Source: a virus
Taxonomy: Duplodnaviria > Heunggongvirae > Uroviricota > Caudoviricetes
Direction: 5' to 3' (one strand)
DNA: 18,349 bases
Virus record (IMG/VR): IMGVR_UViG_2654587685_000017
Location: 1 to 18,349 of that record
Below are positions 1 through 3,000 of this stretch, one piece after another. The stretch's first letter is position 1. Each line of letters opens with the position of its first letter. A program made the position numbers.

Positions 1-3000
1 GTGGGTGGCGGCGCTCATGTCAAACTCACCCTGCATCCAGCAGACGGCCAGCAGAACGTTTTTGGGATTTTTCTGCAATGCCGCTTTTGTGCGGGAAATC
101 AGATCCTGATATAACGGCTTGCCCACCCCCCAGCGTGCCGAATCCTGACTGGCCCCCGTGGACTCGCTGAATGTCCCCTCCGCGCCCTGGGTAAATGCCG
201 AACCACCACGACAGCATGGTACCAGCAGGATCCCCGCGTTATTCGGGATATACGGGAGCAGTTTTTTGGCAATATGTAAACCCTGGCCGACACAGCCGTA
301 CTGCCCTTTGCTCAGGTCAGCCCTCGGATGATTCAGCGTACTCATATCCTGCACATCATGCAGACAGTGGTCAGCCGGAATAATATCGTTATATCTGCAG
401 GCAGCCCCGCCCGGCGTCACTGTACTGCGGCGCGCCAGCTGTTTAATGCGCGGATCCGGAGCATCGTATGAATCCGGCAGCGGAAGCCCTTCACCGTAAG
501 CCATGGCATTGGACTGCCCGGCCAGTACGATGACGTAGTACCAATCCGGCTCAGATGAAGGGCCGACCTGTGGCTCTCCTTCAATAGCCACCGCCTGCAT
601 CAGTGTGTACGGCGTAATGGCAACCGGTCCGCCGTATGGCTGCCAGCCCTCTTTCAGTTTGTGTGTCAGCTTTTCCGCAAGATCTGACGGCGACGCCGCC
701 CTGACAACATCATAGTGTTTAAATGCCATGGTTCTTTCCACCATCTGAAAAATGATTCTTTAAAATACCTGACATGTAATACAGAAAAAACACAAAACCA
801 TACCTTAAATAAAAACCTCATCATCAAGCAGATATGCATGGATAAACTACAAGACGAGATATAAACCACCCTGCATTTAAATAAACAATAAACAACATCA
901 GAAAAATAATTCTGCTCTATGGTTTACAATCAAAAATATCATTTATACTTTTCAGAACATCACCAGCAAGGCATAAACAAGGAAACTAAATGAAGTGGAT
1001 TGTGATTGATACAGTTATCCAGCCATCATGCGGAATATCTTTTTCAGTCATATGGAGTAAAATAAAATTAATAATCTGGTATCAATCGGATGCTTTCTTA
1101 CCTCCTGAAAGTATATTTACACTGACTCACACAGGTATCATGCTCAATAACAAAGTGCTACCTGTAACCATTTACAACGTAGTACCATTCAATAAAACAT
1201 TCTGGAATTTAATCAAAAACAGCCAGGAATGCCCTACAAATACAGATAACGTATTGAATGAATGCTTTAATAACCGTTGCACTCTGCAAATATGTCCTTA
1301 TGGGCTAAAACAACAAAGTCCATAAGGAGTTTACTCACATCTGACAAAATCAATATAAACAGCCCCTCCGGAGAGGGGCTGGAGAGTGGCGCTATGTGCC
1401 ATTGCATGGTGCCGGGTGCCTCCCGGTGAATTCAGTACCAGCACCTGAATCCGCGATTATCCCATATACCTACTCGCTGATTGCCCCTCCGCACAGGGGG
1501 ATTCACCATGCCAGTTTCTTTTAACAAACTCCCCGCAAACCAGACAACAGTCAACCGCCTGAATTGTGAAGTATTTAAAAATTTCTCCCGCTAACTGATA
1601 CCCGGCTAACAGTCTGGCGTTTTCTTTTTCAGCAACGGGAAAGCAACAACCACCACACCCGCCACCAGCACACCGTCAGCCAGCACTGACATTATCCGGC
1701 TGCTGCAATGCCATTCACAAAAACAGTAAGCTATCACTTTTTACCGTAACAGGTGATAATCCAGATATGTATCTACCCCAGATGAGTAATCCGAAGTTCA
1801 TCCATACCACAGGTCCTGGCTATTCTGTTGTACTCCTGAACAAGAGCAAATAATTCTGAATTAGCAACCATGAACTCATCGCAAACCCTCTGTATAGCAT
1901 CACTATTCAGAATAATAACGTCTCTTCCCGAAAGACGATCAGGAGTACAGAACAAAACTGTAAAACGGCTGAAGGCCTTTGCTCGTGCTGCATTGACTAT
2001 ATCAATACGCTGCCTAAGGATGAAACACCCCGACGCCCCATCAATATTCACTCTACCCACACCATATGAATGATAAATATTTAATACTGAAAAAACCATT
2101 AGACCGTATAACAAACACTCAATCAATACTTAACAGAACTTTTATTTTTGACAAACATATAATATTTTCAACAATATCCTGAGCCAGGTATATTCCAGTA
2201 TAAGGCTCTGCCGGAAGGAATCTGGAAGAATGAATATGGCGCGTTGTACTGGATTCGAACCAGTGACCGATTGCTTAGAAGGCAATTGCTCTGTCCGGCT
2301 GAGCTAACAACGCTGAATACCGATAATGGACCGCCATCGGGGACCAGCCCCCCGCACCAACAACCCTGTTATCGTGTCGTCTGCTCTTCCTGATAAGCTA
2401 ATGGCGGTTTGTGATGGTGGCCCTTGCTGGATTTGAACCAGCGACCTGGCGATTATGAGTCGCTCGCTCTCACCACTGAGCTAAAGGGCCGGGAGCAGAA
2501 TAATAATGGTGCGTAATTAATTCTGCAATCTCATCCGTTTCAAACGATTAAATCCTGAACTTCCCTGACTGTCTGCTCAAAACGTCCGGTCTCCAGCTCA
2601 ACACCAATCGCACGACGCCCCAGTGCCATCGCCGCTTTTACCGTTGAACCCGACCCCATGAAAAAATCCGCAACCAGATCACCAGGACGACTACTTGCGC
2701 TGATTATCTGCTGCAGCATTTCTGCCGGTTTTTCGCACGGATGTTTCCCGGGATAGAACTGCACCGGTTTATGTGTCCACACATCCGTGTACGGCACCTG
2801 CGCCGTCACACCAAAATACCGCCGCAGATGTTTATATTCACTCTGCAGCTCCGCATACTGTCGGTTCAGTGAAGTATACGTATCCACCAGCTGGTGGTGG
2901 GGCTTTTCCAGTTCCCCCCGCTGATGCTTCTCTTCTGCCACCCTGGCAAACAGTGCCTGTAATTTCAGATAATCGCTTTCGTTCGGCAACTGCCACTGAC

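Follow-up and report, generated by a model that had tools for sequence, protein, structure and literature searches.

In the window, by which we mean the whole 18,349-nucleotide stretch of viral DNA analyzed, the interval between the phage tRNAs and nanS-p most probably represents the late-operon cargo region of a Shiga toxin-free prophage, organized as two exchangeable bays (bay 1, 1570-2228; bay 2, 731-1402) that are split by a small-RNA gene. Jointly with the mechanism proposed in the last section, we assign this explanation a probability of roughly 85%. The host element is a toxin-free lambdoid prophage, and since the interval holds four known features, namely iraL, an STnc100-family small RNA, a DUF3927 family peptide and a conserved 92-aa gene, it is read as part of an ordinary toxin-free prophage and not as a deletion scar.

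Boundaries and content of the interval

On one strand, the late region ran in the order methylase, ileZ/arg tRNAs, cargo, STnc100 and nanS-p, as it does in Stx-converting lambdoid phages, but with the toxin missing (Table 1). The ARAGORN tRNA calls and the esterase start codon agree with the placement of the interval in the first-pass annotation. Homologues of the CAT tRNA are annotated as tRNA-Ile in RefSeq and as ileZ2 in Sakai Sp5. The sequence between the two intact tRNAs gave no ARAGORN call; its ends matched Sp5 argN at 18 of 19 and 22 of 23 nt, including parts of the acceptor stem, and its middle was unrelated. Homology to Stx2 phages as well as to the near-identical fS25a prophage ended at 2229-2224, beside the tRNA-Arg gene. 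On the opposite side, nanS-p was recognized by two Pfam matches (PF08410, 3.7e-16; PF03629, 4.9e-11), and its RefSeq homologue is named "SASA family carbohydrate esterase".

An AT-rich tract and hairpins had been described from the sequence, and both were recovered: the GC content was 0.304 at 730-989 and 0.345 in iraL, whereas the whole window averaged 0.491 and its nanS-p part 0.571, and the hairpins included one of nine perfect pairs. The description of the interval as low-coding with only weak ORFs did not hold, with coding sequence covering 747 of its 1507 nt (50%, or 62% including the small RNA). Both of the supposedly weak ORFs matched known conserved proteins, the one of 111 aa being IraL and the one of 108 aa containing the 92-aa gene as its core. 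Three further ORFs (666-869 and 1267-1407 on the - strand, 1396-1524 on the + strand) had no family match and were rejected as spurious, and the pseudogene annotation opposite the small RNA is probably spurious as well.

Table 1. Features in and around the cargo interval, in window coordinates
Feature	Position	Strand	Evidence or remark
nanS-p, 5' part (DUF1737 and SASA sialate O-acetylesterase)	1-729	-	ATG at 729; runs off the window at base 1
Cargo interval	730-2236		Between nanS-p start (729) and tRNAs (2237-2313, 2415-2490)
AT-rich intergenic DNA, divergent between iraL promoter and nanS-p start	730-920	.	GC ~0.30
iraL promoter and 5' UTR (predicted)	921-989	+	-10 TATACT 944-949; transcription start 957
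iraL, IraM-family RssB anti-adaptor, 111 aa	990-1325	+	NCBIfam NF007393
STnc100-family small RNA	1351-1540	-	Rfam RF02076, full model
Terminator hairpin, 3' end of small RNA	1360-1381	-	Nine perfect pairs, including 7 G-C, followed by GTTTATATTG
DUF3927 family 43-aa predicted membrane peptide	1606-1737	-	Pfam PF13064
92-aa conserved gene, GTG start at 2051	1773-2051	-	phrog_2873; purifying selection
AT-rich leader (GC 0.31) upstream of 92-aa gene	2052-2236	-	Composition
tRNA-Arg(TCT), argO-type, upstream edge of cargo slot	2237-2313	-	ARAGORN; Rfam 70.1 bits
Degraded argN-type tRNA relic between two intact tRNAs	2314-2414	-	End alignment with Sp5 argN
Phage tRNA(CAT), ileZ-type tRNA-Ile2	2415-2490	-	ARAGORN; Rfam tRNA 72.5 bits

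The gene running convergent with the late operon was assigned to iraL on the basis of its match to NF007393 (162 bits, cut-off 121, residues 1-110), its similarity to IraM in PDB entry 8TWD (E 9e-32) and its identity in 111 of 111 residues with IraL of strain CFT073 (WP_000871291.1). In CFT073, where c1429 was named iraL, the gene is located on the potB-island prophage, and its product is an anti-adaptor of RssB, binding the RssB N-terminal domain and lengthening the half-life of RpoS (Hryckowian et al. 2014; PMC4045071). The 5'-RACE sequence of the CFT073 iraL mRNA, ACATCACCAGCAAGGCATAAACAAGGAAACCA (PMC4045071), corresponded to window positions 957-988 in 31 of 32 nt. The promoter and 5' UTR differed from CFT073 by three SNPs, one of which adjoins the likely -35 element, and were identical to those of ST69. 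Judged by sequence, iraL is preceded by a sigma-70 promoter of its own with the start mapped in CFT073. The intergenic DNA beyond this promoter contained no ORF with a family match and gave no Rfam match at E up to 1. As part of our main explanation, the AT-richness would reflect the iraL cassette together with the regulatory DNA of iraL.

The position of the 92-aa gene was exactly that of stx2AB in Stx2 phages. Its frame was kept at exactly 279 nt in all three diverged lineages compared (DNA identity 71-75%), about half of the substitutions among these lineages fell on third codon positions, and the proteins shared 58-62% identity with a dN/dS of 0.27-0.28. The protein matched phrog_2873, a family of phage proteins whose function is unassigned, with E 2e-56, and strain D217-5 has an annotated homologue, WP_001017777.1. 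AlphaFold2 modeled it as a two-helix hairpin (pLDDT 83.7), for which Foldseek returned nothing significant from either the PDB (best E 0.21, generic helical hairpins) or viral structures (best E 0.54). Searches of NCBIfam, PADLOC and PDB sequence profiles gave no informative match. A sub-threshold Pfam match to RHIM, the only one in that database, was taken as chance. The AT-rich leader upstream contained one consensus-level predicted promoter-like site (2171-2144). The neighboring DUF3927 peptide exceeded the PF13064 cut-off of 25 with 95.6 bits and also matched phrog_1470 ("TciB-like"); CFT073, DEC5E and ST69 have a RefSeq DUF3927 protein (WP_000562553.1) at the corresponding position.

The STnc100 match reached 132.4 bits against a gathering threshold of 47 and covered model positions 1-206 of 206. 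The idea of a small-RNA locus was thus borne out by its presence but not by its location, which is in a GC-rich part (0.55) of the interval and not in the AT-rich part. Relatives of this RNA include EcOnc27/sRNA103 of Stx2 phages and PasD. Within an alignment of 11 copies, compensatory changes were found in 12 of the 39 predicted pairs, and the U-tract of the window copy was weaker than in the other copies. The window copy occupies the place of the Sp5 copy, 75 nt after stx2B.

Comparison with Stx2 phages and other prophages

The window was aligned to Stx2 phage Sp5 of strain Sakai, to which we take 933W to be equivalent in the stx2 region. Sp5 resembled the window in the succession of antiterminator, ileZ/arg tRNAs, cargo, STnc100 (EcOnc27), an opposite-strand feature, nanS-p and lysis genes, and homology was observed at the tRNAs, the STnc100 core and nanS-p (window 2600-2229, 1569-1403 and 730-632, corresponding to L011 6656-7025, 8394-8571 and 8834-8932). 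The stx2AB and AsxR genes of Sp5 fell in the two unmatched gaps. Where Sp5 carries stx2AB (1,368 bp), the window carries the 92-aa gene and DUF3927 (659 bp), and the Sp5 segment with the small RNA AsxR (262 bp) is matched in position by iraL and its promoter (672 bp). The alignment represents replacement by unrelated genes and not deletion; the earlier suggestion of a stx-free relative fits, the architecture being that of Stx2 phages with only the cargo differing, while that of a deletion remnant does not. Rfam searches of 600-2400 gave no match at E up to 1 to AsxR or AgvB, the anti-sRNAs that form the opposite-strand half of prophage "sRNA dyads". The possibility that AsxR is a relic of an iraL/iraM gene was considered as well and rejected, as window 701-1420 had no blastn similarity to the AsxR segment of Sp5.

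Stx2a/Stx2c phages of the 2851 / Stx2_EH2246 type had stx2AB in bay 1 and an opposite-strand iraM-family gene between the post-stx2B STnc100 and nanS-p, and the whole of window 1569-20 aligned to them at 75%. Of the 18 listed phage records that carry this paralogue (107 aa; 72-74% identical to IraL, 65% to K-12 IraM), most of them Stx2/Stx2c phages, 15 have no annotation for it. STnc100, an iraM-family gene and an AT-rich leader are accordingly also found downstream of stx2B in some Stx2a/Stx2c phages. The initial equation of the entire interval with the stx slot is upheld for bay 1 only and fails for the remainder. IraM of K-12 (b1160, beside the e14 prophage) belongs to the same family as the window IraL (62% identity) and is likewise an RssB anti-adaptor, but its genomic context and regulation are unlike those of IraL, and it contacts both RssB domains whereas IraL contacts the N-terminal domain only (PMC4045071).

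The potB-island prophage of CFT073 has the same order as the window (tRNAs, DUF3927, STnc100, opposite-strand iraL, DUF1737) with 95.9% DNA identity over 2529-510. The closest relatives of the window prophage are integrated next to potC, and the CFT073 prophage shares their integration site. It differs from the window in that a truncated DUF1737 fragment stands in for the complete nanS-p, in that there are three tRNAs instead of two and a relic, and in its antiterminator module. This slot is the only difference in the fS25a prophage, which matches 93% of the window at 99.7% identity; the fS25a slot contains a TerB pseudogene, DUF3927 and STnc100 and is devoid of iraL. At least 80% of window 600-2400 was present in 864 of 5,426 complete E. 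coli genomes, and the bay-1 segment in 1,183 of them. Across prophages, bay 1 was occupied by stxAB, by the 92-aa gene with DUF3927, by TerB or by TolA, and bay 2 by AsxR, iraL or an iraM-like gene, always transcribed towards the terminator of the small RNA.

Alternative explanations

The view that the interval is a deletion scar, in which stxAB was lost and low-coding debris left behind, is already largely refuted, and we consider it highly improbable. Although the interval shares its position with stx2AB of Stx2 phages and the adjoining degraded argN tRNA indicates some local decay, neither protein nor nucleotide comparison revealed a trace of stx2A or stx2B: tblastn with Stx2A and Stx2B gave no match with E < 3 in the window, in line with the original impression that nothing here resembles an AB5 toxin, and low-stringency blastn with the stx2AB segment gave only chance matches of 16-21 nt outside the slot. 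The segment in place of stx2AB holds two intact genes, including the 92-aa gene under purifying selection, over 860 genomes share this arrangement with 95-99% identity, and other prophages carry other intact cargo here, for example TerB or TolA. The AT-rich part had also been suggested as a possible H-NS-silenced promoter region of nanS-p; that the tract at 730-989 mainly serves as such a promoter or leader is, in our judgement, unlikely. AT-rich horizontally acquired DNA is a typical target of H-NS, a study on H-NS control of iraM and iraD reportedly found silencing of iraM, and the tract lies directly upstream of the nanS-p ATG with a GC content of 0.30. Expression of iraL is increased at 37 C and in a fur mutant (PMC12890032, PMC7157518); of these effects, the higher level at 37 C than at 23 C would fit thermosensitive silencing of the tract. 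However, the one promoter mapped within the tract is that of iraL and reads the opposite strand, and a scan of the tract for promoter-like sites gave none on the - strand. Moreover, nanS-p is a member of the late operon, with a gene order that agrees with Stx phages, and late genes of lambdoid late operons depend on antitermination.

Two alternatives concern individual features. That the 92-aa ORF is conserved non-coding DNA and not a gene appears improbable to us in view of the 279-nt frame kept in three lineages, the low dN/dS, the excess of third-position changes, the PHROG match, the annotated homologue and the confident fold prediction, even though the ORF combines its GTG start with a weak ribosome-binding site in the window, RefSeq annotates no such gene at the locus in CFT073, DEC5E and ST69, and large searches for distant homologues returned only proteins of E. 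coli and Shigella with at least 51% identity. Less improbable, but still rather unlikely, is that the STnc100 match represents a mere structured terminator and recombination linker without a trans-acting regulatory RNA. STnc100 repeatedly forms the boundary of modules and reaches five copies in a single locus, breakpoints of homology coincide with its edges (1569 and 1403), the window copy is only ~71% identical to that of Sp5, and targets of the family are poorly defined, with effects on fimZ and espA seen on overexpression only. Arguing for a regulatory RNA, on the other hand, the compensatory changes in its structure extend beyond the terminator, the related PasD is abundant in RIL-seq, and STnc100 homologues are present in vesicles, bound by Hfq and visible on northern blots, the latter two as described for the Stx2-phage copy EcOnc27/sRNA103 (PMC7873438, PMC12711010).

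Proposed function and significance of the cargo region

In our preferred explanation of a two-bay cargo region, bay 1 would be the true stx-equivalent position, with the 92-aa helical-hairpin protein and the DUF3927 peptide as its contents. Being co-oriented with the late genes, both would be expressed as part of the late operon upon induction and perhaps additionally from a weak promoter of their own. The STnc100 terminator may stop transcription arriving from upstream in the lysogen and let it pass when the late antiterminator is active. Bay 2 would contribute the opposite-strand iraL, expressed from a sigma-70 promoter of its own inside the AT-rich tract; as suggested by the identical CFT073 protein, IraL would block the delivery of RpoS to ClpXP and thereby raise RpoS in growing cells.

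A more speculative extension, which we regard as doubtful, is that the STnc100 core acts as a recombination anchor between two independently swappable bays, with iraL replacing AsxR in an "sRNA dyad" and its transcript running antisense into STnc100. Since a scan of the + strand found no intrinsic terminator after iraL, its transcript may read into STnc100 in this way; if true, antisense read-through would couple the stabilization of RpoS to the small RNA.

The main value of these findings is a correction, in that the interval is a densely used cargo region and neither empty DNA nor a toxin scar, and RefSeq annotation of this locus omits a conserved 92-aa gene that lies precisely where the toxin genes do in Stx2 phages. 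By analogy with CFT073, its main passenger, iraL, would change the stress physiology of the host in the lysogen. The Shiga-toxin position most likely belongs, as one of its bays, to a general hot spot for cargo with RNA genes at its borders, and toxin-free relatives carry other passengers there.

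Gene content between the tRNAs and nanS-p

The window represents a lambdoid prophage with exonuclease, excisionase and integrase genes at its end, and the genes in the part of interest here are oriented on the minus strand (see table). Its closest relative, the prophage of strain fS25a (99.7% identity across 93% of the window), lies beside potC, like the CFT073 "potB island" prophage. The first-pass annotation had described the interval as low-coding DNA with an AT-rich tract, hairpins and only weak ORFs. Its position between the tRNAs and nanS-p, the hairpins and the AT-rich tract (GC 0.304 at 730-989 and 0.345 at 990-1325 versus 0.491 for the whole window) were confirmed, and no resemblance to an AB5 toxin was found, but the low-coding description did not hold for a region that carries iraL, the small RNA STnc100, a DUF3927 peptide and a 92-aa gene. 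Coding sequence occupies 747 of its 1507 nt, or 62% if the small RNA is counted too.

Features of the interval and its surroundings, with matching blocks in Sakai phage Sp5
Feature	Window position	Strand	Sp5 (L011) position, identity	Remarks
DUF968 gene, rusA, then DUF1133 gene	4162-4725 (DUF1133)	-		DUF1133 at antiterminator position
65-aa ORF and DNA methyltransferase	2540-3589	-
tRNA block	2600-2229		6656-7025, 86%
tRNA(CAT)	2415-2490	-
tRNA-Arg(TCT)	2237-2313	-
Interval under study	730-2236			between tRNA-Arg(TCT) and nanS-p
92-aa gene	2051 down to 1773	-		frame of exactly 279 nt, GTG (VNID...) to stop
DUF3927 peptide, 43 aa	1606-1737	-		Pfam DUF3927, 95.6 bits
STnc100 core	1569-1403		8394-8571, 71%
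STnc100, full length	1351-1540	-		Rfam 132.4 bits (gathering threshold 47)
iraL (111-aa ORF)	990-1325	+		NCBIfam IraM model, 162 bits (cut-off 121)
nanS-p start block	730-632		8834-8932, 86%
nanS-p (DUF1737+SASA esterase)	start 729, exits at base 1	-
nanS-p block	561-20		9045-9586, 75%

The supposedly weak 111-aa ORF proved to be iraL, its product being identical at 111/111 residues to WP_000871291.1, which is encoded by iraL (c1429) in CFT073. The gene order of tRNAs, DUF3927, small RNA, opposite-strand iraL and DUF1737 is also shared with the CFT073 potB-island prophage. IraL shares 62% identity with K-12 IraM, for which a solved structure exists (8TWD; match at E 9e-32). The published 5'-RACE sequence of the CFT073 iraL mRNA (PMC4045071) matches window 957-988 at 31/32 nt, and a -10 element (TATACT) is located at 944-949. 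With iraL at 990-1325 and its mapped 5' end at 957, the AT-rich tract is thus mostly iraL coding sequence together with its promoter and upstream DNA. H-NS silencing of this tract is plausible by analogy, such silencing having reportedly been observed for iraM. The iraL promoter and 5' UTR (plus strand) differ from those of CFT073 at 929 (adjoining the likely -35 element), 956 (position -1) and 987 (3 nt before the iraL ATG); this allele is that of strain ST69, while DEC5E has the same three changes and one more at 943. A scan for a plus-strand terminator for iraL found none. In CFT073, iraL expression is raised at 37 C relative to 23 C and also when Fur is absent (PMC12890032, PMC7157518).

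The other ORF singled out earlier (108 aa, listed as 117 aa among the ORFs of the window) has no Pfam or NCBIfam family match, but holds the 92-aa gene, whose product matches phrog_2873 (E 2e-56). RefSeq leaves this gene unannotated in CFT073, DEC5E and ST69, while a homologue in strain D217-5 is annotated as WP_001017777.1. Two diverged homologues (~71-75% DNA identity) were found, and all three lineages keep the exact 279-nt frame from GTG, with 58-62% protein identity, about half of the substitutions at third codon positions and dN/dS of 0.27-0.28. We conclude that the 92-aa ORF is a real gene. Protein homologues were found only in E. coli and Shigella; among 50,697 phage records the gene was present in one and absent from all Stx phage records. 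An AlphaFold2 model (pLDDT 83.7) predicted a hairpin of two helices that includes a short beta turn, and no fold or sequence match indicated a function. The DUF3927 ORF, annotated by RefSeq in homologues, also matches phrog_1470, labelled "TciB-like". A 13-nt inverted repeat at 1732-1758 (arms 85% complementary and separated by 1 nt) overlaps its GTG start and could occlude translation initiation.

Elsewhere in the prophage, the spacer between both intact tRNAs (2314-2414, minus strand) is a decayed argN-type tRNA, in which ARAGORN calls no tRNA; its ends, acceptor-stem parts included, match Sp5 argN at 18/19 and 22/23 nt, while the middle is unrelated. A sok antitoxin RNA was detected at 6741-6916 (minus strand, Rfam 113.5 bits), adjoining a gene annotated in the closest relative as the hokD type I toxin. 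The DicF small RNA identified by Rfam at 13763-13814 (plus strand, 76.7 bits) belongs to a cell-division inhibition module of the Qin/Kim type; this part of the early region carries ydfC and dicB in that relative.

The small RNA STnc100

The 3' end of STnc100 is formed by the hairpin at 1360-1381. Alignment of 11 copies from the window and related loci revealed that the core is invariant and the interior variable, with compensatory changes in 12 of the 39 predicted pairs. Sp5 carries a copy (207.7 bits) 75 nt after stx2B, with opposite-strand AsxR and nanS-p coming next in that order. The Stx2-phage copy is the Hfq-binding small RNA EcOnc27/sRNA103, which together with AsxR makes up a "dyad" (PMC7873438, PMC12711010); the family has been detected in vesicles (PMC12370729) and is reportedly related to PasD (bioRxiv 10.64898/2026.05.13.724894). 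RefSeq places a partial "hypothetical protein" pseudogene opposite STnc100 in homologous loci (L003 5880-6005, L004 4880-5005, L009 23270-23395), corresponding to about 1396-1521 on the plus strand of the window, where a 42-aa ORF (~1396-1524) has no Pfam or NCBIfam match; this call is probably spurious, lying over an RNA gene. Two copies are present in phage 640R1 and five between the tRNAs and nanS-p in a prophage of NZ_AP027246.1 (1667-1879 and 3639-4618 of locus L006), four of which form a tandem array immediately before nanS-p with a spacing of ~260-270 bp.

Comparison with Stx phages

Deletion had been proposed as one origin of the stx-free slot. The matched blocks in the Sp5 alignment instead delimit two replaced segments, and no stx relic was found in the window. 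Where Sp5 carries stx2AB (1,368 bp), the window has 659 bp (1570-2228) with the 92-aa gene and DUF3927, and only this segment is the true stx equivalent; the second (731-1402, 672 bp) holds the 3' part of the small RNA, iraL and the iraL promoter, compared with 262 bp containing the small RNA 3' part and AsxR in Sp5. The stx2AB position thus reflects replacement, not deletion. Stx2a phage LC567837, which represents a different type, has STnc100 and then an opposite-strand iraM-family gene after stx2AB, and the entire stretch 1569-20 of the window aligns to it at 75%.

IraL/IraM-family proteins are encoded in 46 phage records, such as FM180578.1 (phage 2851, 24233-24562), the LC7278xx Stx2c phages and AP012538-40; at least 32 of the 46 are Stx2, Stx2a or Stx2c-converting phages. 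A 72-74%-identical paralogue of IraL is unannotated in 15 of 18 among the matches listed. In LC567837 this paralogue is located between stx2B and nanS-p; it shares 65% identity with K-12 IraM and looks like a third subtype beside IraM and IraL.

Cargo exchange and expected expression

The fS25a prophage differs from the window solely in the cargo slot (about 2224-722): instead of the 92-aa gene, DUF3927, STnc100 and iraL, its slot (2206-3298 of locus L010, from NZ_CM176579.1, versus window 723-2223) contains a TerB pseudogene, DUF3927 and STnc100 and lacks iraL. This confinement of the difference to the slot indicates that a cassette was exchanged recently, within limits set by tRNA-Arg and the nanS-p start. 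Other arrangements were TolA, STnc100, an HTH gene, the 92-aa gene and four further STnc100 copies in strain JNE120393, and the 92-aa gene, TerB and DUF3927 immediately before the holin in D217-5, and such variety makes the slot a hot spot for cargo. Window 2529 to 1403 is shared with phage mEp460 at 98.8% identity, and the two are unrelated past 1403; phage 640R1 matches the window at 94% over 1569 to 510 but not upstream of this stretch. Both abrupt junctions coincide with edges of the STnc100 core, which suggests, without proving it, that crossing over takes place at the core.

Among 5,426 complete E. coli genomes, 864 contain 80% or more of window 600-2400, mostly at 95-99% identity, and 1,183 contain the segment at the stx2AB position. 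The interval is already known and ordinary, since all its components belong to described families and its main gene has been characterised experimentally. In the lysogen, iraL would be transcribed from its own promoter and IraL would block RssB, so that RpoS rises, as shown elsewhere for both steps. The STnc100 hairpin would terminate transcription in the lysogen and be read through after antitermination, and expression of the 92-aa gene, DUF3927 and nanS-p would accompany that of the late operon once the prophage is induced.
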